Source: Candidatus Spechtbacteria bacterium | Lineage (GTDB): Bacteria > Patescibacteriota > Minisyncoccia > Spechtbacterales > JACPHP01 | Assembly: GCA_016188605.1 (NCBI GenBank) | Contig: JACPHP010000016.1 | Location: forward strand, 1 to 60,070 | DNA length: 60,070 bases | Direction: 5' to 3' | In this document: in pieces, positions 21,799-59,941 of the stretch | Layout of the letters: the number at the start of each line of letters is the position of its first letter | How positions within the stretch are numbered: the stretch's first letter is position 1 | Notes under the pieces: model-generated | Seen by the model: the letters and a program-made list of their open reading frames with translations, nothing else | Database searches by the model: none | What the model was told of the DNA's origin: nothing | Program-made: the position numbers and the translations under genes

Positions 21799-21938
21799 AT
21801 TTCAAATTAAAATAGGATATCACAATTTAATTTTCAATTTACAATTTTCAATGATTCGATTTACTAGTTAGTGTTTGAAAATTAGTTCATTAGTTATTCA
21901 TTGAAAATTGAATTTTGAAAATTGAAAATTAGTTTTTT
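21799..21938. repeat. word-built inverted repeat spacer (ttttcaat / attgaaaa words)
   Basis: caatttaattttcaatttacaattttcaatg pairs with cattgaaaattgaattttgaaaattgaaaatt. The words are shared with 37234-37531. Confidence 0.7.
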
Positions 21939-23191: not shown

Positions 23192-23366
23192 CAGCCATAG
23201 GCTGATCCCCGCCAGAGGCGAACAGGCGCCTCTGGCGGAAAATCAAATCGCAAAACTAAAACTCAAATCTTGAAATTACATAAAACCTCTTGATGAAGAT
23301 TTTCGATTTAAGATGTAGATTTGAGATTTACGATTTGAGTTTTGCGATAACATGTTGAGATTTTAG
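23192..23366. repeat. spacer containing a reverse-orientation copy of the CCGCC module plus a word-built inverted repeat (caaaac/ctcaaat words)
   Basis: ggctgatccccgccagaggcgaacaggcgcctctggcggaaaat at 23200-23243, then atcgcaaaactaaaactcaaatc pairing with gatttgagatttacgatttgagttttgcgat. Confidence 0.75.
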
Positions 23367-36396: not shown

Positions 36397-36442
36397 CAGC
36401 AAAGTAAAAAGTCCGGTCGTGGCCGGACTTTTTACTTTGCTG
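36397..36442. terminator. long bidirectional terminator
   Basis: gcaaagtaaaaagtccgg-tcgt-ggccggactttttactttgc. Confidence 0.8.
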
Positions 36443-37531: not shown

Positions 37532-37551
37532 GTGCTTGAACATTTTAAATT

Positions 37552-37866: not shown

Positions 37867-37888
37867 CATATATGTTATACAAAACTAT

Positions 37889-39294: not shown

Positions 39295-39416
39295 ATTTAA
39301 AATGCAAATCTCAAACCTCAAAATGACAATTAAAAATGAAAAATTTACGTCGTTAGTTAGTTTTACATTTTACACTGTAATTTTGAGATTTGAATTTTAA
39401 TTTTTGAGATTGAAAT
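39295..39416. repeat. word-built hairpin spacer (caaaatgcaaatctcaaa words)
   Basis: aaaatgcaaatctcaaacctcaaaatg pairs with gtaattttgagatttgaattttaatttttgagattg. Confidence 0.75.
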
Positions 39417-39881: not shown

Positions 39882-39898
39882 GCGAAACCTGAGAAAGC

Positions 39899-40006
39899 AA
39901 TGCCAAAGTCCAAATTATAAAGACCAAATCAATGTCAAAATCCAAAATCCAAAGTTTTGACATTAGGGCATTTGGACTTTATTTGTAATTTGACATTTGG
40001 ACTTTG
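39899..40006. repeat. word-built hairpin spacer (caaagtccaaat words)
   Basis: aatgccaaagtccaaattataaagaccaaatcaatgtcaaaatccaaa pairs with ttttgacattagggcatttggactttatttgtaatttgacatttggactttg. Confidence 0.8.
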
Positions 40007-40019
40007 AATTATTTTTTTT

Positions 40020-42128: not shown

Positions 42129-42132
42129 ATTC

Positions 42133-42202
42133 TGTCTACCGACAACAGCTTACCGACGACCGTCTCGTGACGGTTAGCGGTCAGCGGTTGACGGTAGTCA
42201 AC
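42133..42202. repeat. accgac-word hairpin spacer, copy 1
   Basis: tgtctaccgacaacagcttaccgacgaccgtc pairs with gttagcggtcagcggttgacggtagtcaa (the 29-mer 42173-42201 is shared with copies 2 and 3). Confidence 0.85.
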
Positions 42203-42212
42203 TTTATTAAAT

Positions 42213-42548: not shown

Positions 42549-42712
42549 TGTCAAAGTCCAAATTACAAATGACAAAAGAATGTCAAAATCTAAAAATTCA
42601 AAATTGTTAACTTTGACTAAATGCCCTAATTTTCTCCGCCTGAGACGCCTGCCCGCCTCTGGCGGGGATCAGCCTTTGGCTGAGACATTTGGACTTTGAA
42701 ATTTGAGCTTTA
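42549..42712. repeat. caaagtccaaat-word hairpin enclosing the CCGCC module, copy 3
   Basis: The arms tgtcaaagtccaaattacaaatgac.. and ..gacatttggactttgaaatttgagc flank 42626-42674, which is identical to 37317-37365. Confidence 0.8.
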
Positions 42713-42723
42713 AATTGCATCTA

Positions 42724-42751
42724 TTGACGTAATCATAAATATAAGTAAAAT
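42724..42751 (+). promoter_or_regulatory. promoter TTGACG-N16-TAAAAT for tuf (about 200-nt leader)
   Basis: -35 at 42724-42729 and -10 at 42746-42751. Confidence 0.5.
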
Positions 42752-42806
42752 ACATCTTGTGTCCTTAACTTACCTTTTTGCTCAGTAGACACTGACGCGA
42801 AAAGCT

Positions 42807-42927
42807 AGGGCTTACGCGTTTGGATGAGATGCTAGGCGCGGACGAGCAGCCGACCGAGACGTACTAAAGTACGTTGAGGAAGGAAGCGCAGTCCGCAACA
42901 ACGCAGATCGCCAAACGCGTAAGCCCT
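42807..42927 (+). ncRNA. structured element A in the tuf leader
   Basis: 17-bp closing helix agggcttacgcgtttgg/ccaaacgcgtaagccct, inner gcggac/gtccgc, and hairpin ACGTAC-taaa-GTACGT. Its homologue is at 31988-32110. Confidence 0.55.
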
Positions 42928-42959
42928 ATAAGCAATAAACTAACTAATAAATAAAATAT

Positions 42960-44196: not shown

Positions 44197-44595
44197 ATGA
44201 GCGCACAAACAACAAAAGGACAAAAAAAAACGCAAACTGTGGTACGAGCGGTCCACGAAGGCGGACGCGAAAGCGTGAAAACAGAAGAGGCTCACCAGCG
44301 ATTGCGCATCAAAATAAAAGCGTATGATCATAAAGTCATTGACTCAAGCGTGCGCCAGATTGTTGATACCGCAATGCGCTATGGCGCAGAGATGCGGGGT
44401 CCTATACCTCTTCCTACGGAATTCCACAAGTACACGGTTAATCGTTCCACTTTTATCCATAAGGACGCCAGAGAGCAGTTTGAAATGAGGATTCATAAAC
44501 GATTGCTTGACATTATCAACCCTTCTCCGCAAGTTATTGATTCTTTGATGGATCTGAACTTGCCGGCGGGTGTGGATATTGAGATAAAGATGTAA
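44197..44595 (+). CDS. rpsJ: 30S ribosomal protein S10 with a ~30-aa N-terminal extension
   Basis: [16 protein letters not shown]...IPLPT....TV.RS...HK..REQFE.R.HKRL. There is no internal start near the canonical N-terminus. Confidence 0.93.
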
Positions 44596-44700
44596 AAAAG
44601 TTAGGTTGAATTTATTAGTATTTAAACAAACTAAATGGTACACAATCGTTTAGTGCGATTATTTTCATTGTGATAAGCGCGATAAGATTTGCGTTAGCCG

Positions 44701-44740
44701 TTTTATAAAAAATCGGGGCTAGCCCCGATTTTTTATAAAA
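44701..44740. terminator. terminator-like hairpin between rpsJ and rplC
   Basis: ttttataaaaaatcggggc-ta-gccccgattttttataaaa, symmetric with A/T runs on both sides. Confidence 0.6.
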
Positions 44741-44753
44741 ATAAATTCTAGCC

Positions 44754-45365
44754 ATGAGTAAAATAATTTTGGGTACAAAACTCGGCATGAGCCAGATATT
44801 CACAGAGCAAGGACGTGTCATTCCCGTGACGCTTATTTCTTGTGGTCCATGCAAAGTTACCCAAACAAAGACCAAGGATAAGGATGGCTACAATGCAATG
44901 CAAGTTGGATTCGGCACCAAGAAAAAACTCTCACCGGCGATGAAGGGCCACTTGAAAGGATTGGAATTTTTCCGCTGGCTCCGCGAGCTTCGCTTGTCGG
45001 AAAACCAAGAGCCGACTGTCAAGCGTGGTGACGTGATAGATGTTTCTTCATTTGCAGAAAAAGAAGAGGTGAGTGTTACGGGAGTTTCTAAAGGAAAAGG
45101 TTTCCAGGGCGTAGTGAAGCGTTGGGGATTTGCGGGGCATTTTCACACACATGGAACTAAGAATACAGAACGCGCTCCAGGCGCAATAGGATCGGGATTT
45201 CCTCAGCACGTGCTAAAAGGCAGAAAAATGGCCGGTCGCATGGGCGGAGATCAGATGACGCGTCGCATGAAGATTGTAAAAGTTGACGCTAAAAACAATA
45301 TCCTTATGCTGGATGGGCCAGTGGCTGGTGTGGCAGGATCGTTAGTTGAGATTCGATCTAACTAA
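44754..45365 (+). CDS. rplC: 50S ribosomal protein L3
   Basis: ILGTKLGMSQIF..G...PVT and KGKGFQGVVKRWGF. Confidence 0.97.
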   Translation: MSKIILGTKLGMSQIFTEQGRVIPVTLISCGPCKVTQTKTKDKDGYNAMQVGFGTKKKLSPAMKGHLKGLEFFRWLRELRLSENQEPTVKRGDVIDVSSFAEKEEVSVTGVSKGKGFQGVVKRWGFAGHFHTHGTKNTERAPGAIGSGFPQHVLKGRKMAGRMGGDQMTRRMKIVKVDAKNNILMLDGPVAGVAGSLVEIRSN

Positions 45366-45375
45366 AATATAAATA

Positions 45376-45454
45376 TTGTCAACCGACAACCGCTTACCGA
45401 CAACCGTTTCGTTATTCGTTTGACAGTTAGCGGTCAGCGGTTGACGGTAGTCAA
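45376..45454. repeat. accgac-word hairpin spacer, copy 2
   Basis: Tandem accgacaaccgctt / accgacaaccgttt at 45382-45409. The right arm agttagcggtcagcggttgacggtagtcaa is at 45425-45454. Confidence 0.9.
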
Positions 45455-45466
45455 ATTGATTAACTT

Positions 45467-46159
45467 ATGAAACTTCCCTTATACACAATTGAAGGAAAAG
45501 AAAAAGGGACGGTAGAAGTACCAGATGCGATTTTTGGTGTGAGCGCAAGCTCTGATTTGCTTCACCAAGCAGTAAACGCGGCGCTAGCAAATTTGCGCAA
45601 GCCTTATGCTCATACGAAAGATCGTAGCGAAGTACGTGGCGGCGGTCGCAAGCCATGGAAGCAAAAAGGCACAGGCCGCGCTCGTCATGGATCAAGACGA
45701 TCTCCATTATGGGTTGGTGGAGGTGTTACGTTCGGCCCAAGCAAGGAAAAAGTTTTTGCGCAGAAGATTAATACCAAGATGAAGCAAAAGGCTTTATTCG
45801 GCGCATTATCATCAAAGATGATGGAAAACAACATTTTTATTGTAGAAAGTTTTACAACTCCGGAGGTAAAAACAAAGAAAGGGGTAGCTTTTTTGCAAGC
45901 GATTAAGTCTGTACGAGGCGCGGATAAGAAATTAGGAAAGGTGTTAATTTGGGGATCGATGGACGACAAAGAATTTCGCCGAATGTTTCGAAACATTGCA
46001 GGGGTTACCCCGCTCCGCATTGAGAATATAAATATTATTGATGTATTTAATCACGCGCATGTGATATTTTCAAAGTCGGCGCTTGATTTATTCATTACGC
46101 GATATGGCAATACTAGATTGGTTCAACCAAAAGCAGGAGCAGCAAAGGAAGCAGTCTAA
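45467..46159 (+). CDS. rplD: 50S ribosomal protein L4
   Basis: RGGGRKPWKQKGTGRARHGSRRSPLWVGGGVTFGP. Confidence 0.97.
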   Translation: MKLPLYTIEGKEKGTVEVPDAIFGVSASSDLLHQAVNAALANLRKPYAHTKDRSEVRGGGRKPWKQKGTGRARHGSRRSPLWVGGGVTFGPSKEKVFAQKINTKMKQKALFGALSSKMMENNIFIVESFTTPEVKTKKGVAFLQAIKSVRGADKKLGKVLIWGSMDDKEFRRMFRNIAGVTPLRIENINIIDVFNHAHVIFSKSALDLFITRYGNTRLVQPKAGAAKEAV

Positions 46160-46592
46160 GGGGGTACAATCCGAAAGGACAAAATCCTCAAAGGCAAGGC
46201 AGCCCAAGAAGCAAACTGCGCAGCAGACGGAAGTCGCTGAAAATAAAGAAGAGATAAAAAAGCCCCTAAAATTGGGGGAAGAAGTTGTTGGCGTAAAGAA
46301 CACGTTAACCGCAGGGTTCCAACATATTATTCATTCCGCATACATTACTGAAAAGACTACGAATATGCAGCCGATGGGTAAGTATGTATTTCGTATTTTC
46401 CCCACAGCAAATTCCACGCAAGTTGCAAATGCTATCAAGGCGATTTATAAAGTCCATGTGCGTAACGTGCATATTATAACTCTTCCCGAAAAGAGGGTGA
46501 GAAGAGGACGATACACTGCGACGCGCACGCGCTATCCGAAGGCAATCGTGACATTGAAGCAGGGCGAAACGATTGAAGTAGTACCAAATTAA
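46104..46592 (+). CDS. rplW: 50S ribosomal protein L23 with a ~70-aa Lys/Gln-rich N-terminal extension
   Basis: The C-terminal 95 aa are L23-like (YITEKT......KYVF.....ANSTQV..AI...Y.V.V..V). The start is uncertain (ATG 46104 or TTG 46083) and overlaps the rplD 3' end. Confidence 0.85.
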   Translation: MAILDWFNQKQEQQRKQSKGVQSERTKSSKARQPKKQTAQQTEVAENKEEIKKPLKLGEEVVGVKNTLTAGFQHIIHSAYITEKTTNMQPMGKYVFRIFPTANSTQVANAIKAIYKVHVRNVHIITLPEKRVRRGRYTATRTRYPKAIVTLKQGETIEVVPN

Positions 46593-46720
46593 AAAACTAA
46601 AATCTTAAATCTCAAACCTCAAATCTACAACTCAAATCTTAAATCTACGTAAGAAGTTTTGAGATTTTAGATTCAGTTTTGAGATTTGCCATTTGAGATT
46701 TGAGATAAAAAGTTAAATTT
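46593..46720. repeat. word-built hairpin spacer (aaatctcaaa words) at the non-canonical L23|L14 junction
   Basis: ctaaaatcttaaatctcaaacctcaaatctacaactcaaatcttaaatc pairs with gttttgagattttagattcagttttgagatttgccatttgagatttgag. Confidence 0.8.
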
Positions 46721-47086
46721 ATGATTCAGGCAGAAACAAAACTTAATGTAGCAGATAATACCGGAGCTAAAGAAATCCAGTGTTTTAAGGTACTGGGAGG
46801 TACTCGACGCCGCTACGCGCAGATAGGCGATATTATCGTTGCCGCAGTAAAAGTCGCGGAGCCGCGCCGAATCGTGAAGTTGCACGAAGTGGTAAAGGCT
46901 GTTATTGTGCGTCAGCGCACCCCATTCCGCCGCAAGGATGGTTCGTATATTCGTTTTGACGAGAATGCGGCAGTTATCCTAGACGGAAAAGAGCCTAAGG
47001 GAGGCCGTATATTCGGTCCTATTCCAAGGGAATTAAAGGAGCGTGGTTTTGATAAGATAGCATCGCTGGCGCCGGAATTGATATAA
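46721..47086 (+). CDS. rplN: 50S ribosomal protein L14
   Basis: [24 protein letters not shown] and IRFD.NA.V. Confidence 0.98.
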
Positions 47087-47089
47087 CAA

Positions 47090-47167
47090 CTATGAATAGT
47101 GAATCATGAATAGTGAATCATGCAGGTGTAGGTATTCATGATTCGTGATTCACTATTCAGTATTCAT
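47090..47167. repeat. word-built hairpin spacer (exact 14-nt tandem atgaatagtgaatc x2)
   Basis: Tandem units at 47092-47105 and 47106-47119, then ATGCAGG. The right arm is attcatgattcgtgattcactattcagtattcat. Confidence 0.9.
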
Positions 47168-47174
47168 TTAACCT

Positions 47175-47480
47175 ATGAAACTAAAAAAGGGAGACATAGT
47201 CGTAATCACGAAAGGAAAGGATCGTGGCAAAAAAGCGAAGATACTTCGCGCTTTTCCTTCTGTTGAAAAGATTATGGTTGAGGGCGTTAATATCCACAAG
47301 CGACATCGCCGCCGACGTTCACAGAGAGAAAAAGGGCAAATTATTTCTATGCCCGTGCCATTTTCTGTATCCAATGTAAAAATTGTATGCGGCAAGTGTA
47401 ATCGGGCGGCGCGCGTACAGTACCAAGGACACGGGAAAGAAAAAGTCCGGATATGCTCATCTTGCAGTGAAAAACTATGA
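47175..47480 (+). CDS. rplX: 50S ribosomal protein L24 with a C-terminal CxxC...CxxC motif
   Basis: KOW motif KLKKGDIVVITKGKDRGKKAKI. The C-terminus reads CGKCNRAARV..RICSSCS. Confidence 0.95.
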   Translation: MKLKKGDIVVITKGKDRGKKAKILRAFPSVEKIMVEGVNIHKRHRRRRSQREKGQIISMPVPFSVSNVKIVCGKCNRAARVQYQGHGKEKVRICSSCSEKL

Positions 47481-48052
47481 TAAATTATTCATTCCAAAAA
47501 CAGTATAAAGATGTCGTTATTCCTGTATTAAAGGAAGCTTTCGGATACAAAAATATTCAGAGCATTCCTCGTCTGGATCGCGCGGTGATTAATGTCGGCG
47601 TCGGAAGAATGCTTAATCAACGCAGCCAAGCCGGAGTTAAAAACGAGGATGCGATAAAAGATATTGTTAAAGCGCTTGCGTTAATTAGCGGGCAGAAGCC
47701 GATTATAGTGCGCTCAAAAAAATCAATTGCAGGATTTAAACTTCGCGCGGGAATGATTAGCGGTGTCAAGGTAACACTACGCAGATCTCGCGCCGAGGAG
47801 TTCTTGGGGAGATTGGCGCACGTCGCTTTGCCCAGAACGCGCGATTTCCGCGGCATTCGTCGATCGACCGTTGATCCATACGGCAACCTTACAATCGGCA
47901 TCAAAGAAAGTATTATTTTTCCAGAACTCGCAGAACTTACTAGCCATTTTGGTCTTGAGGTAACATTTGTTTCTACGGCAAAGACACGCGATGAAGCCTT
48001 CCTTTTATTTGAAAAGTTAGGCATTCCATTCCAAAAAGAAAAAGATAATTAA
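47477..48052 (+). CDS. rplE: 50S ribosomal protein L5
   Basis: Y.....P.L.E.F.YKN....PRLD..VINVGVG and RDFRG. Confidence 0.97.
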   Translation: MINYSFQKQYKDVVIPVLKEAFGYKNIQSIPRLDRAVINVGVGRMLNQRSQAGVKNEDAIKDIVKALALISGQKPIIVRSKKSIAGFKLRAGMISGVKVTLRRSRAEEFLGRLAHVALPRTRDFRGIRRSTVDPYGNLTIGIKESIIFPELAELTSHFGLEVTFVSTAKTRDEAFLLFEKLGIPFQKEKDN

Positions 48053-48068
48053 TCTTTATTAGGGTGGG

Positions 48069-48177
48069 GTTGACCCCGTTAGAGATGCAGGCATAAAACA
48101 AAATAAAGTACTTTATAGAATCCATTTAAATTTTTATCCTAAACCTATTTTCCACATTTATCTCTAACGGGGTTGAC
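48069..48177. repeat. inverted repeat spacer whose right arm carries the reused promoter core
   Basis: gttgaccccgttagagat (48069-48086, followed by ATGCAGG) pairs with atctctaacggggttgac (48160-48177). Confidence 0.8.
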
Positions 48178-48200
48178 TTAAATGTAATTTTCTGTAAAAC
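48114..48200 (+). promoter_or_regulatory. reused promoter cassette, copy 2: TTGACT-N16-TAAAAC; leaderless geometry for rpsN
   Basis: tatagaatccatttaaatttttatc..tttatctctaacggggTTGACT. -35 at 48173-48178 and -10 at 48195-48200. The ATG at 48208 lies 8 nt after the -10. Confidence 0.5.
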
Positions 48201-48207
48201 TTTTTCT

Positions 48208-48393
48208 ATGGCTAGAAAAGCCCTCATCAACAAAGCGCAAAGGACGCCAAAATTTTCAACTCGGCTTGTTCGACGATGTTTCCGTTGCGGAAGAAAAAAT
48301 TCATATATGAGAGATTTTAGATTGTGCAGAATTTGTTTCAGAGAGCTTGCAAATAGAGGAGAGCTCCCGGGTGTTAAAAAAGCTTCTTGGTAG
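48208..48393 (+). CDS. rpsN: 30S ribosomal protein S14, type Z (zinc)
   Basis: 61 aa with CFRCGR..........CRICFRE. Confidence 0.96.
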
Positions 48394-48458
48394 TGCCACA
48401 AAACGGCACTCGCGGACAACGCGGACTTAACGCAGAAATACGCAGAAAAATTAAATTT

Positions 48459-48653
48459 ATGGATATTCGTGAAACGAGACAAAAATCAATACCCGAACTA
48501 GAATCGCTTTTGAGAGAAAATCAGGCGCATTATCTTGATTTGCGATTTCGCGTGCAAGGAGGACGAGTGAAGAACGTTAACGAGATGCAGCGCGCGCGCA
48601 AGGATATCGCGCGATTATTTACTCTTCTGCGCCAAGCTACTCTAAAGAAATAA
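48459..48653 (+). CDS. rpmC: 50S ribosomal protein L29
   Basis: MDIRETRQKSIPELESLLRENQAHYLDLRF. The track ORF start at 48387 extends into the spacer. Confidence 0.9.
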   Translation: MDIRETRQKSIPELESLLRENQAHYLDLRFRVQGGRVKNVNEMQRARKDIARLFTLLRQATLKK

Positions 48654-48778
48654 TTTAGATTGTAAAATGTATATTCTAATACTTAAAAAGTAAAATAATT
48701 TGAAGCTCAGTATACAGTTGTAACTGTATACTGAGTGATGAATTTGCAACATCGCTTCGCTCTGGCAAATTCTATCAT

Positions 48779-49081
48779 ATGACAGCAACATTCCCCAAAA
48801 AATTTGAAGGAACCGTGGTGTCCAACTCAATGGATAAGACTGTTGTCGTGGAAGTGCGAATGTTGAAGCAGCATCCTAAATACAAAAAGTTCATGAAGCT
48901 GAGCAAACGCTATAAGGCGCACGATGATGGGAATATATATAAAGTAGGCCAGCGTGTTTCTATTGTTGAGGTGCGGCCAATATCTAAAGATAAGAAATGG
49001 AAAGTCCAAGAGCTTCTGTCAGATGTTAAAGAAATAGCAGAGGAGATCGGAGAAGTTAATGAAGAGATTGCATCATTATGA
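48779..49081 (+). CDS. rpsQ: 30S ribosomal protein S17
   Basis: FEGTVVSNSMDKTVVVEV......PKYKK......RYKAHD and V.I.E.RPISK.K.W. Confidence 0.95.
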   Translation: MTATFPKKFEGTVVSNSMDKTVVVEVRMLKQHPKYKKFMKLSKRYKAHDDGNIYKVGQRVSIVEVRPISKDKKWKVQELLSDVKEIAEEIGEVNEEIASL

Positions 49082-49905
49082 AATACCGCAAACCAACGTC
49101 ACCAGGACAACGCGGGATGGTCGTTTCAGACTTTTCCGACCTAATCAAGCCGAAAAGAAAAAAACGGCTTGTTGTTGCGCATCATCGTTTTGTTGGTCGC
49201 AGCAGAGGAAAGATAACAGTGCGCCATAAAGGTAGTGGCGCAAAGCGTTTATATCGTCTCGTTGATTTCAAGCAAGATAAATTTGATATTTCCGCGACAG
49301 TTTTGCATTTGGAATATGACCCCAATAGAAGCGCGCGCATCGCATTTGTTCAATACAAAGACGGCGAAAAAAGATATGTGCTTGCCACGCAAGACACAAA
49401 GCCGGGTGATGAAATAATGTCATCAGAAAAGAAGATCGCGCTTATAAACGGCAATCGTATGCCACTTAAACATATCACCATTGGAACGTTTGTGCACAAC
49501 ATTGAGTTGGGACATAATCGTGGAGGTATGCTTGCGCGTTCTGCGGGAGCGTATGGCAAAGTTGCGGCACAGGAAGGGGCATCAACGCATATTATAATGC
49601 CTTCATCTGAAGTGCGTATAATTCAAAATGACTGTTTGGCAACAGTTGGCGTGGCGTCCAACGCTTCGCATAGCGAAGAAGTAATAGGAAAAGCAGGTCG
49701 TAATCGCCACAAGGGAATTCGTCCGACTGTTCGTGGTACAGCAATGAACCCGGTTGATCATCCGCACGGAGGAGGTGAGGGCAGAGCGCCGATTGGCATG
49801 CCTCATCCAAAGACACCGTGGGGCAAGCCCGCGCTTGGCGTGAAGACGCGAGACAGACGGCGATATTCTAACAGGCTTATTGTTCAACGAAGAAGGAAGA
49901 AATAG
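49078..49905 (+). CDS. rplB: 50S ribosomal protein L2
   Basis: KPTSPGQRG and [15 protein letters not shown] 4-nt ATGA overlap with rpsQ. Confidence 0.98.
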
Positions 49906-49908
49906 AAC

Positions 49909-50019
49909 TAAAGTTAAAAGTTAAAAGTCACAAGTTAAAAATTATAGTATGCCGCTTCGCGGCAATATATACATCCCCAAAGGGGATACCGACACTTTTA
50001 ACTTTTGACTTTACACTTT
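49909..50019. repeat. two-hairpin core module, copy a (aagttaaaagtcac-word arms)
   Basis: Core at 49941-49990: attatagtaTGCCGCttcGCGGCAatatatacATCCCCaaaGGGGATacc. Confidence 0.9.
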
Positions 50020-50033
50020 GTATTTTTTTAATT

Positions 50034-50342
50034 ATGTCACGATCACTGAAAAAAGGAGCATACGTAAATGAGAAGCTGATGAAAAAAATCGGCAAGCTTA
50101 GAGTTGGCGATAAAACCGTAATCAAGACGTGGTCGCGCTCCTCAACTATTACTCCTGAGATGATTGGATTGACTTTTGGAGTGCATAATGGCAAAGATCA
50201 TATTCCAGTGTATGTTACAGAAGACATGGTCGGACATAAGTTAGGTGAATTTTCCCCAACACGAAAGTTTGCGCGTCACGGAGGAAAAATGCAGAAAGAG
50301 ATTGAGGGTAAAGGAGTGGCACAGCCAGTAGCCAAAAAATAA
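50034..50342 (+). CDS. rpsS: 30S ribosomal protein S19
   Basis: [22 protein letters not shown] and VHNGK. Confidence 0.98.
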
Positions 50343-50351
50343 TATTAAAAA

Positions 50352-50438
50352 TGTCTACCGACGACCGCTTACCGACTACAGCTCACAGCCATCAGACGAG
50401 TAATGGGCAGTTAGCGGTCAGCGGTTGACGGTAGTCAA
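50352..50438. repeat. accgac-word hairpin spacer, copy 3
   Basis: tgtctaccgacgaccgcttaccgac pairs with agttagcggtcagcggttgacggtagtcaa (50409-50438). Confidence 0.9.
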
Positions 50439-50450
50439 TTAATTGGATTT

Positions 50451-50801
50451 ATGCCAACAGCAACAGCAAAACTTTCTTATATGCACATCGCGCCTCGCAA
50501 GGTGCGGCTTGTTGCTGATGTTATTCGTGGCATGCGTGTTGATCGAGCGGAAGAGCAGTTACGTTTTTCACGTAAACGCGCGGCCCACGATATTTTGAAG
50601 CTTTTGAAGTCTGCCCAGGCAAACGCAAGGGGATCGGAAAAAGATGTAAAAAATCCCGCACCCCTGTATGTGCGAAGTATTGTTGTTGAACAGGGTCCGG
50701 CATACAAGCGTTATCATCCGCAATCGCGAGGCCGCGCGGCATTGATTAAAAAGATAACCAGCCATGTGAAAATTGAATTGGCTGAAAAGGAAACTAAATA
50801 A
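50451..50801 (+). CDS. rplV: 50S ribosomal protein L22
   Basis: I.PRKVRLVADVIRG..V..A...L.FS.K.AA. Confidence 0.97.
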   Translation: MPTATAKLSYMHIAPRKVRLVADVIRGMRVDRAEEQLRFSRKRAAHDILKLLKSAQANARGSEKDVKNPAPLYVRSIVVEQGPAYKRYHPQSRGRAALIKKITSHVKIELAEKETK

Positions 50802-50896
50802 AGTTAAAAGTCACAAGTTAAAAATTATAGTATGCCTCTTCGCGGCAATATATACATCCCCAAAGGGGATACCGACACTTTTAACTTTTGACTTTA
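50802..50896. repeat. two-hairpin core module, copy b
   Basis: Core at 50824-50873, with stem TGCCTC/GCGGCA (a U.G pair in the sense strand). Confidence 0.9.
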
Positions 50897-50919
50897 AATT
50901 TTACACTCGCAGTAAACTT

Positions 50920-51645
50920 ATGGCACACAAAGTTCACCCCACATCATTTAGACTCGGTATTTTAACGGAATGGAAGTCACGTTGGTTTAGCGCGCGCGGA
51001 TATCAAGATAATTTGCAAGAAGAAATATACATTCGTGAGAAATTAGTGAAACAATTGCGCAGTGCCAGCATAGATAAGATTGAATTTGAACGGTCTGGAA
51101 ACAAACTTTCTGTTATTATACATACGGCTCGCCCAGGGCTTATTATTGGTCGCGGGGGCGCTGGCGCGGATGATTTACGCGCATCAATAGTGAAGATGAT
51201 ACGCGCCACTCGCTTGGTTAATAAGCCGGAAAAAGGTATAAATAAATCTACACATCATCGCGAAGACAAAAAAGAAGTAGAGCAGCCGAAGCGTCTACCC
51301 GAAGTTCGCGTTGAGATTCGCGAAGTACGACAACCCGAACTTTACGCGGCCCTTGTTGGTCAAGGTATCGCAGAGCAGCTAGAAAAACGCATGCCTTTCC
51401 GACGTGTAATTAAGCGAACATTGGATCGCGTGATGATGAATAAAGCCGTACAAGGCGCGAAGATTATGGTTAAGGGTCGTCTTGATGGTTCTGAAATGGC
51501 GCGCAGAGAGTTGGTTAGAGCTGGCCGTCTCCCTTTACAAAAGCTCCGCGCTGATATAGATTATGCTCACACCATTGCGTATACTACGTACGGTGTTATT
51601 GGCGTGACAGTGTGGATTTATCGAGGAGATAAGCTGGAGAAATAA
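50920..51645 (+). CDS. rpsC: 30S ribosomal protein S3
   Basis: MAHKVHPTSFRLGI...W.S.WF with a KH domain. The track ORF start at 50773 reads through the repeat. Confidence 0.96.
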   Translation: MAHKVHPTSFRLGILTEWKSRWFSARGYQDNLQEEIYIREKLVKQLRSASIDKIEFERSGNKLSVIIHTARPGLIIGRGGAGADDLRASIVKMIRATRLVNKPEKGINKSTHHREDKKEVEQPKRLPEVRVEIREVRQPELYAALVGQGIAEQLEKRMPFRRVIKRTLDRVMMNKAVQGAKIMVKGRLDGSEMARRELVRAGRLPLQKLRADIDYAHTIAYTTYGVIGVTVWIYRGDKLEK

Positions 51646-51646
51646 T

Positions 51647-51762
51647 AAATTCAAAATGCAAATCTTAAATCTCAAAATTATGGTGTGCCGCGGAGCGGCA
51701 CTATATACATTCCCCAAAGGGGATACCAAAGTTTTGCATTTTGAGATTTAAGTTTTGAGATT
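51647..51762. repeat. two-hairpin core module, copy c (caaaatgcaaatc-word arms)
   Basis: Core at 51677-51727: attatggtGTGCCGCggaGCGGCACtatatacatTCCCCaaaGGGGAtacc. Confidence 0.9.
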
Positions 51763-51767
51763 GAAAT

Positions 51768-52181
51768 ATGTTAGTCCCAAAGAAGGTAAAACATCGTAAA
51801 TGGACAAAGGGCCATCATCGTACGGCGATAGATTCGCGTGGCACGACGCTTAGTTTTGGTTCTTACGGTCTGCAAGTCAAGGAAGGCCATGGGCGTGTTA
51901 CGAGCCGTCAGATTGAAGCTGTGCGCCGCGTGTTTACACGCGCGATGAAAAAAGGAGGAAAAGTGTGGATCCGTATTTTCCCAGATCGGCCAATAACTAA
52001 GAAAGGAGTGGAGGTTCCGATGGGCGGAGGAAAGGGTTCGGTAGAGCATTATGTGGCGGACGTTGGTCCGGGACGCATTTTGTTTGAGATTGATGGAATA
52101 ACTCCCGATGTCGCAAAAGAAACAATGCGGCTTGCAGGATTCAAGCTGTCGGTGCGGACACGGATGATTACTAGAGAGTAA
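51768..52181 (+). CDS. rplP: 50S ribosomal protein L16
   Basis: MLVPKKVKHRK...G, with the G.YGL pattern and RQIEA.RR. Confidence 0.98.
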   Translation: MLVPKKVKHRKWTKGHHRTAIDSRGTTLSFGSYGLQVKEGHGRVTSRQIEAVRRVFTRAMKKGGKVWIRIFPDRPITKKGVEVPMGGGKGSVEHYVADVGPGRILFEIDGITPDVAKETMRLAGFKLSVRTRMITRE

Positions 52182-52287
52182 AAGTTAGTTAAAAGTTAAA
52201 AGTCACAAGTTAAAAATTATAGTATGTCGCTTCGCGGCAATATATACATCCCCAAAGGGGATACCGACACTTTTAACTTTTGACTTT
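52182..52287. repeat. two-hairpin core module, copy d, at the non-canonical L16|L6 junction
   Basis: Core at 52216-52265, with stem TGTCGC/GCGGCA (a U.G pair in the sense strand). Confidence 0.9.
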
Positions 52288-52308
52288 AAATTTTACACTT
52301 ATTTAATT

Positions 52309-52851
52309 ATGTCACGAATTGGCAAACAACATATTACGTTACCAAAAAATGTCACGATCGAACAAAACGACCGTGTTTTGAATATAAGCGGGCCGCGGGG
52401 CGCGCTTTCCATAATACTAACCAATGAGGTTGAAGTAAGAAATGAGAATGGCGTATATATTGTTGGGCTTTCTAGCAATGAACTAAATAAAAAAAGCGTA
52501 TCTTTATGGGGGCTTACAAAACGCTTAATTGAAAATGCCGCGAAAGGAGTAAGTGAAGGGTTTAGTAAGAAAATGTTTATTGAAGGTGTTGGCTACCGGG
52601 CAGAAATACAGGGGAAAGATTTAGTGTTGAGTTTGGGATTCTCTCATCCGGTTCGCATTTCTGCTCCAGAAGGAATACAATTCAATGTTGATAAAAACAC
52701 ACTTACTGTTTCGGGGAACGATAAATATCTAGTTGGGCAGGTTGCGGCAAATATCCGCGTGTATCGAAAGCCAGAACCATATAAAGGAAAGGGTATTCGT
52801 TATGAGGGCGAACGCGTTCGTCGCAAGGCTGGTAAGAAAGCGGCTGCGTAA
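52309..52851 (+). CDS. rplF: 50S ribosomal protein L6
   Basis: MSRIGKQ.I.LP..V and PEPYKGKGIRY. Confidence 0.97.
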   Translation: MSRIGKQHITLPKNVTIEQNDRVLNISGPRGALSIILTNEVEVRNENGVYIVGLSSNELNKKSVSLWGLTKRLIENAAKGVSEGFSKKMFIEGVGYRAEIQGKDLVLSLGFSHPVRISAPEGIQFNVDKNTLTVSGNDKYLVGQVAANIRVYRKPEPYKGKGIRYEGERVRRKAGKKAAA

Positions 52852-52879
52852 TTGATTTTAATTATTTGAACAAAGATTT

Positions 52880-53245
52880 ATGGAAAGTCGCGTCTCTACA
52901 AAAAAAAGAATATTAAGAAATCGTCGTCACAAGCGAATTCGCAGTACGATGCAGGGGACCAAACAGCACCCGCGGCTTTGCGTATTTCGTTCAAATACAT
53001 CAATATACGCGCAAATTATTGATGATGAGAAGGGTATGGTATTGGCTTTTGCAACAGATCGTAAGTTGAATGATAAAAAGAAAGAAGGTAAGGTTGGCCG
53101 CGCGGAGCGAGTAGGAGAGCAAATCGCTGAACTTGCCAAGAATGCGGGTATTAAAAAAGTGAAATTTGATCGCGGAGGATATAGATATCACGGTCGTATA
53201 AAAGCGCTTGCCGATGGCGCAAGGAAAGGAGGGTTGATATTCTAA
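52880..53245 (+). CDS. rplR: 50S ribosomal protein L18
   Basis: R..R.R......T...PRL.VFRSN..IYAQIIDD and FDRGGY.YHGR.KALA. Confidence 0.97.
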   Translation: MESRVSTKKRILRNRRHKRIRSTMQGTKQHPRLCVFRSNTSIYAQIIDDEKGMVLAFATDRKLNDKKKEGKVGRAERVGEQIAELAKNAGIKKVKFDRGGYRYHGRIKALADGARKGGLIF

Positions 53246-53343
53246 CTAAAGTTAAAAGTCACAAGTTAAAAATTATAGTATGTCGCTTCGCGGCAATATA
53301 TACATCCCCAAAGGGGATACCGACACTTTTAACTTTTGACTTT
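53246..53343. repeat. two-hairpin core module, copy e, at the non-canonical L18|S8 junction
   Basis: The core at 53272-53321 is identical to copy d. Confidence 0.9.
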
Positions 53344-53363
53344 AAATTTTGAATTTATATTTT

Positions 53364-53756
53364 ATGCATTCCGATCCAATAGCAGACATGCTTAATCGAA
53401 TAAAGAACGCTTCTATACTCCACCACGAGGTGGTGAAGATTCCGTATTCCAAAGTAAAAGGGCAACTCGCCGATTTGCTATTGGAAGAAGGTTTTTTGGC
53501 AGGAGTGGATCGCAAGAAAGACGGCGTGCGAAAATATCTTGTTATTAATTTGCGCTATGAAGGGGGTGCGTCGGCAGTTAATGGAGTTGCGCGAATCAGT
53601 AAGCCTGGGCGCCGTATGTATGTTAAGGCGGCGGAAGTTAAGCCGGTTAAGCATGGCTATGGTTGCGCGGTTATATCAACGTCCAAAGGTCTCATGACGG
53701 ATAAGCGCGCCCGCGAGAAAGGGCTTGGCGGAGAGTTTTTTTGTAAAGTTTGGTAA
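53364..53756 (+). CDS. rpsH: 30S ribosomal protein S8
   Basis: DPIADMLNRIKNA and ST..G....RA....GGE. The ATG at 53364 is preferred to the track TTG at 53349. Confidence 0.96.
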   Translation: MHSDPIADMLNRIKNASILHHEVVKIPYSKVKGQLADLLLEEGFLAGVDRKKDGVRKYLVINLRYEGGASAVNGVARISKPGRRMYVKAAEVKPVKHGYGCAVISTSKGLMTDKRAREKGLGGEFFCKVW

Positions 53757-53767
53757 AAAGGTACATT

Positions 53768-54433
53768 ATGCCAACACCACAATTATCACAATCAAGAAAT
53801 TCACAAGACCATCGTCGTATGGGGCCTGGAGGAGGAAGGGGGGGCGAGCGAAGGGGTGGGATACAGCAAAGGAGAGAACGAGGTCCGCAAACTCAAAGAG
53901 AGGGATCGCGTTTTGCGTCACAAGAATTTGAGCAAAAACTTTTACAGCTTGCTCGCGTTGCTCGTGTCACGAAAGGCGGACGACGATTTAGTTTCCGCGC
54001 GACAGTAGTTATTGGTGATCGCAATGGTCGTGTCGGGGTGGGGGTTGCAAAGGGAACTGACGTTTCCGCGGCAGTTGAAAAAGCCGTGCGTAATGCTAAG
54101 CGCGCTTTGATTATTGTCCCAATGACAAAAAATAAGACTGTTCCTTATGAAGTCATCGGCAAGCAGACTAGCGCCCGAGTATTTTTGGCACCGGCATTCG
54201 GCGGGCGTGGAATTATTGCTGGAGGCGCTGTGCGCGCAGTGTGCGACCTGGCAGGATATCGTGATATTTCAGCAAAAATTTTAGGACGCACGAGTAATAA
54301 ATTAAATAACGCGCTTGCAACCATTAAAGCATTGCAATCAATTAAGATGATGAAGCGAGGAAAGGTTACGCAAAACGAAGTAATCTCAAACGAAACGGTC
54401 GTGAGTGAGGATGAGGTTCAACTAGTAAAATAA
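53768..54433 (+). CDS. rpsE: 30S ribosomal protein S5 with an Arg/Gly-rich N-terminal extension
   Basis: VTKGGRRFSFRATVVIGDRNGRVGVGVAKG, preceded by about 50 aa of GGGRGGERRGG-type sequence. Confidence 0.95.
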   Translation: MPTPQLSQSRNSQDHRRMGPGGGRGGERRGGIQQRRERGPQTQREGSRFASQEFEQKLLQLARVARVTKGGRRFSFRATVVIGDRNGRVGVGVAKGTDVSAAVEKAVRNAKRALIIVPMTKNKTVPYEVIGKQTSARVFLAPAFGGRGIIAGGAVRAVCDLAGYRDISAKILGRTSNKLNNALATIKALQSIKMMKRGKVTQNEVISNETVVSEDEVQLVK

Positions 54434-54437
54434 AATA

Positions 54438-54519
54438 TCTAGAATACAGAATCTAGAATACAGAATGCAGGAAAAACTAACCGCAACTCCCCGTATTCTT
54501 GATTCTGTATTCTGTATTC
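54438..54519. repeat. word-built hairpin spacer (exact 14-nt tandem tctagaatacagaa x2)
   Basis: Units at 54438-54451 and 54452-54465, then ATGCAGG. The right arm is gtattcttgattctgtattctgtattc. Confidence 0.9.
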
Positions 54520-54525
54520 AAAGTT

Positions 54526-54969
54526 ATGCAGATGCACGAATTACAAAAACCGAAGACTCAGAGAAAATCTCGACGCGTGGGACGCGGCGGAAAGCGCGGT
54601 ACTTATTCTGGTCGTGGCATGAAAGGGCAAAAAGCGCGCGCGGGCGCAAAGATACGCCCGGAATTCCGTGAATTTTTTAAGCGCGTTCCGAAGCTCCGCG
54701 GCTCAAACGGCCCAACTTTTGCATTCAAAAAAAATAATGTAGAGGTGGTTTCCCTCCAGGCGCTTGATAAATATTTTGAAAAAGGAGATGTTGTATCGCC
54801 AAAGACACTGGTTGAGCACAAGGTTGCCGTTAAGCTTAACGGCCGCTTGTCACTTGTAAAGATTCTCTCTAAAGGTACAATTTCTAAAGGAGTGAATGTG
54901 GAAGGATGTTCCCTTTCAGCATCAGCACGTAAGCAGATTGTGAGTGCAGGAGGAAGCGTTAAAAACTAA
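54526..54969 (+). CDS. rplO: 50S ribosomal protein L15
   Basis: RRVGRGGKRGTYSGRGMKGQKARAG. It directly follows rpsE, with no L30 gene between them. Confidence 0.95.
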   Translation: MQMHELQKPKTQRKSRRVGRGGKRGTYSGRGMKGQKARAGAKIRPEFREFFKRVPKLRGSNGPTFAFKKNNVEVVSLQALDKYFEKGDVVSPKTLVEHKVAVKLNGRLSLVKILSKGTISKGVNVEGCSLSASARKQIVSAGGSVKN

Positions 54970-55088
54970 ACTCAAAATGCAAATCTCAAATCTCAAAATT
55001 ATGGTGTGCCGCGAAGCGGCACTATATAAATCCCGCCAGAGGCGGGATACCACAACTTTGCATTTTGAGCTTTAAGTTTTGAGATTGA
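54970..55088. repeat. two-hairpin core module, copy f (variant second hairpin)
   Basis: Core at 54998-55051: attatggtGTGCCGCgaaGCGGCACtatataaaTCCCGCCagaGGCGGGAtacc. Confidence 0.9.
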
Positions 55089-55093
55089 AACCT

Positions 55094-56368
55094 ATGTCCG
55101 TTCTACGTCAACTATTCTATACATCCGAACTTCGCAATAAGATATTTTTCGTTCTCGGCGCTTTAGCCCTGTTTCGCGTGTTTGCTAACATTCCTATTCC
55201 GGGCATTAATCCCGAGCGCCTCGCCGCCTTCTTTGCGGGCAATCAATTCTTCGGTCTTCTTAATCTATTTTCAGGCGGAGCGCTTAGCAACCTCTCGCTT
55301 ATGATGCTCGGTCTTGGTCCGTACATTACCGCAACGATTATTTTGCAGCTTTTTACAATGATATTTCCTCGCCTCAAAGAGATGTATCAAGAGGAGGGCG
55401 AGATGGGCAGGCAAAAATTCAATCAATATTCGCGCATGCTTACCGTACCGCTGTCATTATTGCAGGGGTATGGTCTTATTACTCTTTTTACGCGTCAGGG
55501 GCTCATAGATCCATTAAAACCGCTTGCTTTAGCAGCGGCTTTGCTTACTGTCACCGCCGGATCATTGTTGCTTATGTGGATTGGCGAACTTATTTCTGAA
55601 AAAGGAATTGGTAATGGCATCTCGCTATTAATTTTTGCCGGTATTATTGCTGACGCGCCTAGTTCTATTCAGCAACTTATTGCATCAGGCACGCAAGAAG
55701 ATATTCCCGGATATATCATTTTCGCCGCGCTTTCTGTAATTATTGTGGCAAGTGTTGTGGTAGTTAATGAGGCGCGAAGGAATATTCCCGTGACCTATGC
55801 TAAACGAGTTCGTGGAAATAAGATGTACGGCGGCGTTTCTACTTTTTTACCGATTAATTTGAATCCGGCAGGTGTTATTCCTATCATTTTTGCGCTTTCC
55901 ATCTTACTGCTTCCAACCATGATAGCTAGTTTTGCGGCGGCCTCTACGAATCATTTGGTGATTAGAATTTCTGAATATATAACAAAATTCTCGCAAGGAA
56001 GCTGGGAATATAATCTAATATATTTTATTTTAGTGGTGCTATTTACTTATTTTTATACCGCTGTAACTTTTGAGCCGCACAATATTGCGACAAATCTTCA
56101 GAAGCAAGGGGGCTTCATTCCGGGCATTCGTCCAGGGAATCCAACTTCGGAGTATCTTTCCTACATTTTGAATCGCACTCTTTTCGTTGGCGCGTTATTT
56201 TTAGGGACGATTGCTGTTTTTCCTTCAATAATTCAAGGCGCAGTTAATATTCAGGCCTTTCGATTTCTTGTTGGCGGTACAGCCGTACTGATTGTTGTTT
56301 CCGTAGTGCTTGAAACAGTGCGGCAGATTCGCGGCCAATTGGCGATGCGCCAATATGAAGAATTTTAA
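55094..56368 (+). CDS. secY: preprotein translocase subunit SecY
   Basis: 10-TM protein with the SecY N-terminal and GLGPYITA..I motifs. The ATG at 55094 is preferred to the track TTG at 55079. Confidence 0.96.
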   Translation: MSVLRQLFYTSELRNKIFFVLGALALFRVFANIPIPGINPERLAAFFAGNQFFGLLNLFSGGALSNLSLMMLGLGPYITATIILQLFTMIFPRLKEMYQEEGEMGRQKFNQYSRMLTVPLSLLQGYGLITLFTRQGLIDPLKPLALAAALLTVTAGSLLLMWIGELISEKGIGNGISLLIFAGIIADAPSSIQQLIASGTQEDIPGYIIFAALSVIIVASVVVVNEARRNIPVTYAKRVRGNKMYGGVSTFLPINLNPAGVIPIIFALSILLLPTMIASFAAASTNHLVIRISEYITKFSQGSWEYNLIYFILVVLFTYFYTAVTFEPHNIATNLQKQGGFIPGIRPGNPTSEYLSYILNRTLFVGALFLGTIAVFPSIIQGAVNIQAFRFLVGGTAVLIVVSVVLETVRQIRGQLAMRQYEEF

Positions 56369-56370
56369 GG

Positions 56371-56414
56371 TAAAATTAAAATAACCCCGCCATGGCGGGG
56401 TTATTTTAATTTTA
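56371..56414. terminator. strong bidirectional terminator after secY
   Basis: taaaattaaaataaccccgcc-atg-gcggggttattttaatttta. Confidence 0.8.
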
Positions 56415-56473
56415 CAAAAGCTTTATTTTATAAGAAGATATGATATTATGCGGATATAATTTCTTATTGTTTC

Positions 56474-59929: not shown

Positions 59930-59941
59930 GGGGGGGGGGGG
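59930..59941. repeat. homopolymeric G12 tract
   Basis: 12 consecutive G, preceded by cttatccacaccctacccatcgca, which is homologous to the sequence upstream of the G15 tract. TATACT lies at 59950-59955. Confidence 0.98.

Follow-up and report, generated by a model that had tools for sequence, protein, structure and literature searches.

A conserved two-hairpin tip on 7-nt-periodic spacer hairpins of a ribosomal-protein operon in Candidatus Spechtbacteria

The STRR elements of cyanobacteria (short, tandemly repeated and repetitive) are arrays of heptamer words in non-coding DNA that are able to form hairpins, for example in the hupS-hupL intercistronic region (PMC2670836). Heptamer repeats have also been described in Nostoc and Beggiatoa (TAACTGA, TTCAAAA; PMC4679880; bioRxiv 10.1101/2022.06.06.494920), and such hairpins, which lie between co-transcribed genes or immediately upstream of start codons, have been suggested to serve transcript stability or the coupling of translation (PMC2670836; PMC4679880; bioRxiv 10.1101/2022.06.06.494920). 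A second kind comprises small palindromic repeats of intergenic DNA and elements similar to miniature inverted-repeat transposable elements (MITEs), such as ERIC/IRU, Correia/NEMIS, BOX and REP/REPIN; these give long RNA hairpins able to affect mRNA stability or processing by RNase III or RNase E (PMC3184786, PMC2229807, PMC3116915). Here we analyze a 60,070-nt stretch of Candidatus Spechtbacteria (assembly GCA_016188605.1, contig JACPHP010000016.1, positions 1 to 60,070 of the forward strand), called the window below, in which a preliminary description had pointed out six copies of a two-hairpin core. The region of the six copies is the S10/spc ribosomal-protein operon, where each core forms the GC-rich tip of a hairpin of 105-115 nt occupying an intercistronic spacer. 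We read the six cores, with slightly better than even confidence, as the conserved tips of a non-coding, insertion-derived, mosaic palindromic intergenic repeat that is largely structural and tolerated through looping-out. Judged by sequence comparison, the family is a previously unlisted one, with a tip common to this bacterium of the candidate phyla radiation (CPR), to Portnoybacteria and to a rumen Ruminococcus.

The likeness to STRR lies in the arms, which are tandem 7-nt words, in the non-coding setting and in the position of the hairpins between genes of a presumably co-transcribed operon; the word TTCAAAA/TTTTGAA, known from Nostoc, also builds arms at the Portnoybacteria locus (L048) and at 21799-21938 of the window. 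The hosts, however, are CPR bacteria (Parcubacteria, Portnoybacteria) and a Firmicute instead of cyanobacteria, the words change from spacer to spacer, and the GC-rich two-hairpin tip is common across phyla. The canonical STRR words of heterocystous cyanobacteria (CCCCAGT, TTGGTCA, CAACAGT) and the word TAACTGA have no tandem copies in the window. To our knowledge, a conserved cross-phylum two-hairpin tip has not been described for STRR. The 7-nt periodicity ties the elements to the heptamer repeats of cyanobacteria and Beggiatoa (STRR, TAACTGA) and would extend this phenomenon to new phyla.

The cores were defined by a stem-independent pattern, ATTATRGT-N13-21-TATATAMA-N8-22-GATACC, which matches at six sites of the window, all on the + (mRNA) strand, and not once in 100 shuffles. 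A covariance model (CM) of the core recovered the same six sites and no others in the 60 kb; they score 51-64 bits when read in sense and 12-32 when read in antisense. The first description holds for the variants of the stems, for the loops (TTC, GGA, GAA), for the lengthened stem 2 of copy 6 and for the division of the arms into two families, and by both methods the six coordinates given earlier were exact:

49941..49990, + strand: copy 1 core (pattern; CM 53.9 bits), with hairpin 1 at 49950-49964, linker at 49965-49972, hairpin 2 at 49973-49987 and ACC at 49988-49990
50824..50873, + strand: copy 2 core (pattern, CM), with hairpin 1 at 50833-50847 (U-C mismatch) and hairpin 2 at 50856-50870
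51677..51727, + strand: copy 3 core (pattern, CM), with hairpin 1 at 51685-51701 (7 bp, loop GGA) and hairpin 2 at 51709-51724
52216..52265, + strand: copy 4 core (pattern, CM), with hairpin 1 at 52225-52239 (U.G variant) and hairpin 2 at 52248-52262
53272..53321, + strand: copy 5 core (pattern, CM), identical to the copy 4 core, with hairpin 1 at 53281-53295 and hairpin 2 at 53304-53318
54998..55051, + strand: copy 6 core (pattern, CM), with hairpin 1 at 55006-55022 (loop GAA) and hairpin 2 at 55030-55048 (8 bp, CCGCC-AGA-GGCGG)

The core's 5' motif, AATTATGG, is at the same time the usual start context of this genome.

While the two-hairpin core is real, it is just the tip of a larger element that the preliminary description had missed. 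The six whole elements fill the spacers L2|S19, L22|S3, S3|L16, L16|L6, L18|S8 and L15|SecY and fold at z-scores of -6.2 to -7.7 (minimum free energy, MFE, in kcal/mol):

49909..50013, + strand: copy 1 element, arm family A, in L2|S19; MFE -38.6, z -7.7, 20 contiguous arm pairs; begins 3 nt past the L2 stop and ends 20 nt short of the S19 ATG
50799..50903, + strand: copy 2 element, arm family A, in L22|S3; MFE -30.8, z -6.4; left end contains the L22 stop
51651..51758, + strand: copy 3 element, arm family B, in S3|L16; MFE -43.1, z -7.4; three-way junction
52187..52299, + strand: copy 4 element, arm family A, in L16|L6; MFE -33.3, z -6.2
53247..53351, + strand: copy 5 element, arm family A, in L18|S8; MFE -33.3, z -6.4
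54971..55083, + strand: copy 6 element, arm family B, in L15|SecY; MFE -46.5, z -7.4

The AU-rich arms are arrays of 7-nt words and belong to two families (A, n=4; B, n=2). Their tip consists of TTATGG(U), hairpin 1 (GC), an AU-rich linker, hairpin 2 (GC; AUC...GAU) and ACC. In the MFE fold of copies 3 and 6 this tip becomes a three-way junction closed by GGU/ACC pairs, and an alternative UUAUG/UAUAA pairing also appears in the element folds. The stem base lies 0-6 nt past the upstream stop codon (inside the element in copy 2), and the distance from the end of the stem to the next start is 4-20 nt in the CPR. In Ruminococcus, which keeps its native Shine-Dalgarno (SD) leader there, this distance is 36-43 nt. 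In the operon that it expresses most highly, a streamlined CPR genome spends ~100 nt on a hairpin at over half of the junctions between genes, where sister lineages have spacers of 2-40 nt.

We then compared the operon with that of relatives. The window belongs to a CPR bacterium of Parcubacteria type; for its S3 protein, the best match in the protein database is 60% identical and comes from a soil metagenome (L223). This contig bears long heptad hairpins in the same spacers, with different words (TAGCTTT...) and a different single hairpin as tip, and has in common with the window an unusual gene order (L23|L14-L24-L5|S14-L29-S17-L2-S19-L22-S3-L16|L6-L18|S8-S5-L15-SecY). Three Parcubacteria at 50-53% S3 identity have the canonical gene order, spacers of 2-40 nt and no hairpins, which makes the hairpins derived and fast-evolving, not an ancestral requirement. 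The shuffled ribosomal-protein order, with L3 and L4 first, extends over 44197-56368 in the window and 3315-15364 in L223, and several of its breakpoints are hairpin-bearing spacers. Recent recombination between copies was rejected as its source, as L223 has the same order without those repeat sequences.

Scanned against 185,579 species genomes, the core pattern gave 64 matches, 62 of which lack hairpins and are attributable to chance. The two genuine ones come from Ruminococcus sp. RGIG6826 (L043) and Candidatus Portnoybacteria CG08 (L048); their stems differ from those of the window, but the architecture is the same and heptad arms enclose the core. Viral contigs gave 38 matches, none of them genuine; among the 120 matches listed for metagenome contigs two were genuine, duplicates of the L043 and L048 lineages; and the cores had no BLAST match in plasmids and phages. 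More carriers were reached by way of the flanking proteins. Ruminococcus strains ~91% identical (Rum2) hold in the same spacer a diverged core, TTATGGT GTCCGC-tgac-GCGGAC AAATTCAGATATC ATCGCC-gtaa-GGCGAT ACC, between entirely different arms. Run over all fetched CPR and Ruminococcus loci, the covariance model made one addition, a one-hairpin variant between gyrA and a methyltransferase gene in L242 (AAATTATGGA GTCCCGC-tcc-GCGGGAC GAAATAATTACT). In all, the tip module is known from 11 sites in ~4-5 independent lineages. The L242 contig also codes for a pair of bAvd and reverse transcriptase, similar to a diversity-generating retroelement (18204-19611).

Occupied and empty alleles were found at two of these loci. 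The Ruminococcus spacer, at a locus with an aminotransferase gene, a 171-aa ORF and trpS, measures 152-158 nt with the element (L043, L162, L230-232) and 20-25 nt in the syntenic L233-L238, from strains of 86% and 77% identity in which the native SD is kept. Likewise, the Portnoybacteria spacer is ~120 nt long in L048 and 14-15 nt when empty (L239-L241, 81% and 73% identity), while the Portnoybacteria-like L242 (60% identity) has TTCAAAA-type arms resembling those of L048 at the same site, with a different tip. Empty spacers of 14-25 nt in close relatives of these Ruminococcus and Portnoybacteria argue that the element is an insertion, a point that had escaped the preliminary description. A tip common to groundwater or soil CPR and a rumen Firmicute, which appears as a clean insertion behind stop codons, would mean either that a very small element has spread horizontally, by a mechanism yet to be described, or that it is recognized by machinery which the two phyla share. 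The occupied and empty Ruminococcus alleles also constitute a natural experiment on the effects of such hairpins on operon expression.

The insertion polymorphism brings the elements closer to ERIC, Correia and REP sequences, which are also imperfect palindromes of ~100-150 nt, non-coding, multi-copy, located in transcribed spacers and polymorphic for presence. As with MITEs, there are multiple copies (six in 5.2 kb) and empty alleles (L233-L238, L239-L241). However, these elements conserve their centre and vary at their ends, where a MITE shows the reverse, and shared terminal inverted repeats of the MITE type are absent, as the same core stands on unrelated arms (family A versus B, Rum1 versus Rum2, Portnoybacteria). 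The 7-nt periodicity of the arms, the uniform orientation and the saturation of a ribosomal-protein operon also set the elements apart from this second kind of repeat. Hairpin 1 is preceded by GGTG, GGTA or AGTA, not by the GTAG/CGTC of REP/REPIN-RAYT systems; the two tip hairpins are unlike and in direct order, which does not make a REP doublet; and no Y1/HUH domain was found in the open reading frames (ORFs) of the window. With the IS200/IS605-derived PATEs, which have subterminal hairpins as well as guide and cleavage tetranucleotides recognized by TnpA, the two small hairpins and the lack of terminal inverted repeats and target-site duplications are compatible, the cleavage motifs not being definable from five lineages.

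Small dispersed repeats (SDR) of Nostoc, which Elhai et al. are said to have described in 2008 (cited after PMC3116915 and PMC4390886), are reportedly hairpin modules of 21-27 nt seemingly inserted or nested in other repeats and palindromes. A core placed in the tip of pre-existing heptad hairpins would fit this description (compare L242 with L048), a lead by description only, although SDR are cyanobacterial and just 21-27 nt long. Long stem-loops between cistrons are also found as the RNase III processing hairpins of phage T7 and the REP-type 3' stabilizers of Escherichia coli; the elements described here differ from them in having no sequence similarity, in being dispensable in relatives and in being known from sequence alone. 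Rfam 15 identified only two tRNAs in the whole window at the gathering threshold, and at E<=10 gave chance matches to microRNA precursors, far under threshold, in 49850-55150.

The six copies turned out to be one sub-family among many 7-nt-periodic spacer hairpins, which had been overlooked before. Eleven more spacers of the window hold similarly built hairpins with other tips, for a total of at least 17 including the six copies:

39295..39416, + strand: related hairpin in S12|S7; outer arms as in copies 3 and 6, tip different
39882..40019, + strand: related 7-nt-periodic hairpin in S7|EF-G
42129..42212, + strand: related hairpin between EF-G and a Phd-like ORF, TACCGAC word family
42549..42720, + strand: related hairpin upstream of the tuf leader (ORF|tuf); tip is the CCGCCTCTGGCGG/CAGCC-TTT-GGCTG module
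45366..45466, + strand: related hairpin in L3|L4, TACCGAC family
46593..46720, + strand: related hairpin in L23|L14, AATCTCA words
47087..47174, + strand: related hairpin in L14|L24, GAATAGT/GAATCAT words
50343..50450, + strand: related hairpin in S19|L22, TACCGAC family
54434..54525, + strand: related hairpin in S5|L15, GAATACA words
21799..21938, + strand: related hairpin in HIT|S21, TTTTCAA words
23235..23350, + strand: related hairpin in YbeY|FtsA, AAATC words, with a reverse-oriented GC hairpin module just before it (23196-23238)

Over the 17 window spacers, autocorrelation averages 0.48 at lag 7 and 0.44 at lag 14, against ~0.25 in coding DNA, and the two peaks are present in 17 of 17 as well as in L223, L043 and L048. 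The heptad words vary between spacers (AAGTTAA, AATCTCA, TACCGAC, GAATACA and TTTTCAA, for instance). A universal polarity with an A-rich left and a U-rich right arm was considered and discarded, the L223 and HIT|S21 hairpins being of opposite polarity. The hairpins with TACCGAC/GTCGGTA-type heptads occur in three copies (42122-42210, 45366-45463 and 50341-50447) whose arms are 79-93% identical and whose tips are all different. The tuf leader (~410 nt) contains a further long, near-perfect hairpin at 42805-42932 (AGGGCTTACGCGTTTGG...CCAAACGCGTAAGCCCT), and 42740-42960 folds at -89.7 kcal/mol.

Conservation of structure under changing sequence, as claimed in the preliminary description, was found once homologues from other lineages were added, but not within the window alone. 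There, the four family-A copies are identical across ~97 nt save for two substitutions, which leaves almost no independent variation. In a structure alignment of eight distinct sequences from 4-5 lineages, registered by hand and fitted by the analyst, 91.7% of the cells pair and 10 of 25 pairs are changed on both sides, though some of these double changes are better read as the gain or loss of a whole base pair. None of 500 shuffles reached the observed values, and pairing fell to 38-49% when the 3' partners were slid as a control. RNAalifold independently predicted both hairpins, with compensatory changes in 6 of 14 pairs, and conservation across lineages extends to TTATGG and GAUACC, which are single-stranded motifs. 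From these comparisons, the two hairpins are evidently kept as hairpins, covariation by itself not specifying in which molecule, RNA or DNA.

The variation among copies is largely mosaic. In copy 2, the stem TGCCTC/GCGGCA, previously read as a C-to-U change giving U.G, actually has G replaced by U opposite a C, which leaves a U-C mismatch. The U.G reading stands for TGTCGC alone, and this variant is found in copies 4 and 5, which are identical and so count as one event. The different, longer helix of copy 6 (hairpin 2, CCGCC-AGA-GGCGG) is present as described, but it matches a hairpin module found elsewhere in the window, at 37344 and 42653, where the loop is the opposite one, and at ~23210 within a reverse-oriented two-hairpin module. 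On sequence, it looks like the product of a module exchange or extension more than of compensatory point changes. Conversely, copies 3 and 6 and the S12|S7 spacer have their outer arms and the 15 nt before the ATG in common, with a different tip in S12|S7. Mosaicism hence runs both ways, one arm set being combined with several tips and one tip with several arm sets. In Ruminococcus, two strains of 95% identity (L043, 4989-5140, and L162) differ by a concerted change of all left-arm heptads from CGGAAT to CGTAAT, with core and right arm unchanged and a loss of hairpin stability (-42.6 against -30.1 kcal/mol). These mosaic and concerted changes point to processes acting at the DNA level, such as slippage, conversion and module exchange, insofar as sequences can tell. 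A caution follows for similar cases, in that a seemingly structure-conserving pattern among paralogous repeats can stem from recent copying or module exchange instead of selection on RNA.

The GC-rich two-hairpin module itself (CCCGCC-TCT-GGCGGG GAT CAGCC-TTT-GGCTG) lies at 37305-37367 and 42614-42676 (94% identical) and, reversed, at 23196-23238. The first of these falls within a palindrome of ~300 nt (37234-37540, MFE -139 kcal/mol) between a tRNA gene and the str operon, directly upstream of a pair of Gp49/HigB-like toxin and helix-turn-helix antitoxin (37552-38173).

If the elements are tips and arms of an insertion-derived repeat, they would spread or be homogenized at the DNA level, by transposition-like insertion and/or by slippage, template switching and gene conversion among repeats, and propagation or recognition would concern the GC-rich tip. 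Judging from the operon context, the element would be co-transcribed with its neighbors. The RNA hairpin would then loop the insert of ~100 nt out and place the upstream stop beside the downstream start, which would make the insert tolerable in tightly coupled operons and keep the arms complementary. On terminating at the stop, a ribosome would melt the stem at its base, exposing the next start region. A secondary role as mRNA stabilizer or processing site is possible.

Several observations weigh against this reading. The geometry of stop, stem and start is observed, while looping-out and coupling are what we infer from it. The comparisons of occupied with empty sites show neither a target-site duplication nor a conserved terminal inverted repeat, the insert boundaries being inexact there and able to hide a TA-type duplication in the palindrome, and no transposase, reverse transcriptase or HUH gene is among the ORFs of the 60-kb window. 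The representative genomes of Ruminococcus and Portnoybacteria have one strict-pattern copy each, which leaves active mobility unproven. At the single-copy Ruminococcus site the core is kept with compensatory changes (L043 versus L230), which resembles a function under purifying selection more than a parasite in decay. All 11 known sites are sense-oriented, and 16 of the 17 window hairpins flank genes of the translation apparatus, a hint at function. Finally, insertion gives no account of the 7-nt period.

The enrichment in translation operons, the orientation and the persistence of the Ruminococcus core give real weight to the main rival, a cis-acting structured RNA selected in mRNA orientation, for instance an intercistronic punctuation or processing cassette. 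We regard such a sense-RNA device as a serious minority possibility. In one form, an enzyme of the RNase E/Y/J type would cut the AU-rich linker, or RNase III the 20-30 bp arms (arms of at least 20 bp are plausible RNase III substrates), after which hairpin 1 would protect the 3' end of the upstream mRNA and hairpin 2 the 5' end of the downstream one; in another, the three-way junction would bind a protein. Such a device would account for the retention, from CPR to Firmicutes, of both hairpins with compensatory changes and of TTATGG and GAUACC, for a Ruminococcus site that kept its core while the arms turned over, and for the enrichment of the window hairpins in translation operons. Orientation is uniform, as the preliminary description had it, with 11 of 11 known sites in sense between co-directional genes (~4-5 lineages). 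However, GC skew is positive throughout the window and the operon is co-directional with replication, as is the Portnoybacteria locus; the sense strand is the lagging-strand template, so uniform orientation cannot separate RNA from single-stranded DNA (ssDNA). The genes flanking the Ruminococcus element have a negative coding-strand GC skew and are possibly head-on, with the element still in sense, which would favor a transcription-linked polarity and thereby an RNA device; this skew was read over 8 kb and is a weak indication.

The comparison of the two strands speaks against such a device. Pairing in the sense strand only, on which the earlier argument had been built, was absent from MFE values and from G.U and mismatch counts. 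Among the six copies, the sense fold is sometimes the more stable and sometimes the antisense fold, with no consistent winner. RNAfold gave 76 G.U pairs in sense and 76 in antisense over 28 related hairpins, with summed MFE values of -1005 and -975 kcal/mol, and the Ruminococcus elements fold more stably in antisense. In Watson-Crick-only folds, the symmetric internal mismatches comprised 8 of G.U type, 8 of A.C type and 62 others, so that mismatches without a bias to G.U, which the preliminary description had named as evidence against its own proposal, are what was found (8 versus 8). The core alignment has 10 G.U and 7 A.C cells, and among the latter is, in every family-A copy, the A of TTATAGT opposite a C. 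An asymmetry between strands thus gives no support to selection acting specifically on the sense RNA. In addition, the linker sequence is not kept in Rum2 and hairpin 2 is missing from the L242 variant, relatives do with spacers of 2-40 nt, which makes the element dispensable, and covariation among near-identical paralogues within the genome is not independent. Template switching at quasi-palindromes can produce compensatory changes in DNA hairpins without any selection on RNA.

A bolder version, somewhat less probable than the RNA device in general and put forward tentatively, takes the tip junction for a genuine cross-phylum, orientation-specific RNA device on self-building 7-nt arms. It would act either as an intercistronic punctuation or shunt element through which ribosomes or RNases deal with polycistronic mRNAs in SD-poor CPR or as the cis-site of an undescribed mobilization system that inserts behind stop codons and makes its own heptad arms. 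The mobilization form, if true, would also offer a way into the heptamer repeats of bacteria, a puzzle of 35 years' standing.

The other explanations are less likely. One of them, which we consider improbable, is an ssDNA element whose tip hairpins would be recognized on one DNA strand by an HUH/Y1-type enzyme or another structure-specific recombinase, with REP-RAYT and the IS200/IS605-derived PATE as models and with an orientation set by replication, through the lagging-strand template. Two unlike small GC hairpins in direct order, with neither target-site duplication nor terminal inverted repeat, are indeed as at the ends of IS200/IS605-type elements, and the lagging-strand position in the window, the co-directional Portnoybacteria locus, the presence/absence polymorphism and the lack of an RNA-type wobble bias would all agree with it. 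However, neither the 60-kb window nor the fetched loci contain a tnpA or RAYT gene, there is no GTAG/CGTC tag beside the palindromes, the Ruminococcus copy may be on the other replication strand (again a weak indication), and copies outside this genome are few.

It is very unlikely that the elements are internal promoters or terminators, with ATTATAGT/TATATA as -10 boxes and the AT-rich arm as -35 or UP sequence, or with hairpins that stop transcription. A consensus scan flags TTAAAA-16-TATAGT in four of the four family-A copies, but the scan returned 46 sites where 34 were expected, such matches being unremarkable in AT-rich arms, while the clear promoters of this genome read GGGGTTGACA-17-TAAATT; furthermore, TATAGT is TATGGT in other lineages, the TATATA linker is lost in Rum2, and no U-tract follows either hairpin or the arms. 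Least likely of all is a relay mini-ORF, in which translation of a short peptide (MVC...) would begin at the AUG of TTATGG, melt the right arm and hand ribosomes to the next gene: five of six core types have an ATG, in the usual start context AATTATGG, and ORFs 8-24 codons in length finish within the right arm, but the four family-A copies read ATA and have their ATG out of frame, peptide length and sequence are not conserved, the stem changes are compensatory and not synonymous, and the AUG sits inside the closing helix.

Other ideas were rejected too: a conserved peptide, as the ORFs are not conserved; a tRNA-like element, as no tRNA model matched at E<=10 in 49850-55150; a Xer/dif-like site (ATAA-N6-TTAT core, 11-bp arms), which matched in none of the elements and in the window as often as by chance; and an intrinsic terminator, none being listed at the six copies and the terminator-like palindromes of the genome looking different. 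The latter are perfect palindromes with little or no loop and arms of 21-27 nt, AT-rich outside and GC-rich inside, located at gene ends (7310-7363 and 11978-12031, 92% identical; 9689-9743, 29094-29142, 29534-29577, 36396-36443 and 56370-56415). They resemble bidirectional terminators and differ from the heptad hairpins.

With regard to promoters, a motif AACGGGGTTGAC(A) is found three times, at 24716 (upstream of ftsZ), 38824 (upstream of rpsL) and 48166 (upstream of S14). The sequences upstream of the first and third are 89% identical (24664-24727 versus 48114-48177), and the second runs into a sigma-70-like promoter of rpsL (TTGACA, a 17-nt spacer and TAAATT). Should the copy at 48166 be a promoter too, the operon would be split after L5.

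The window contains other repeats as well. Three hairpins closed by GCYCATAATT...AATTATGGCAT (1005-1072, 8728-8800 and 15500-15575) lie beside the starts of glmS, parB and dprA. A 61-nt repeat, 85% identical, is found at 36206-36266 and 42347-42407 within two small ORFs that have this coding stretch in common, 35937-36386 and 42213-42548, the latter being Phd/YefM-like and located between fusA and tuf. Non-coding tracts of G15 (26083-26097) and G12 (59930-59941) may be prone to slippage or sensitive to assembly, and an ORF for an NHL/LysM surface protein contains 180-nt tandem repeats (26600-26999).

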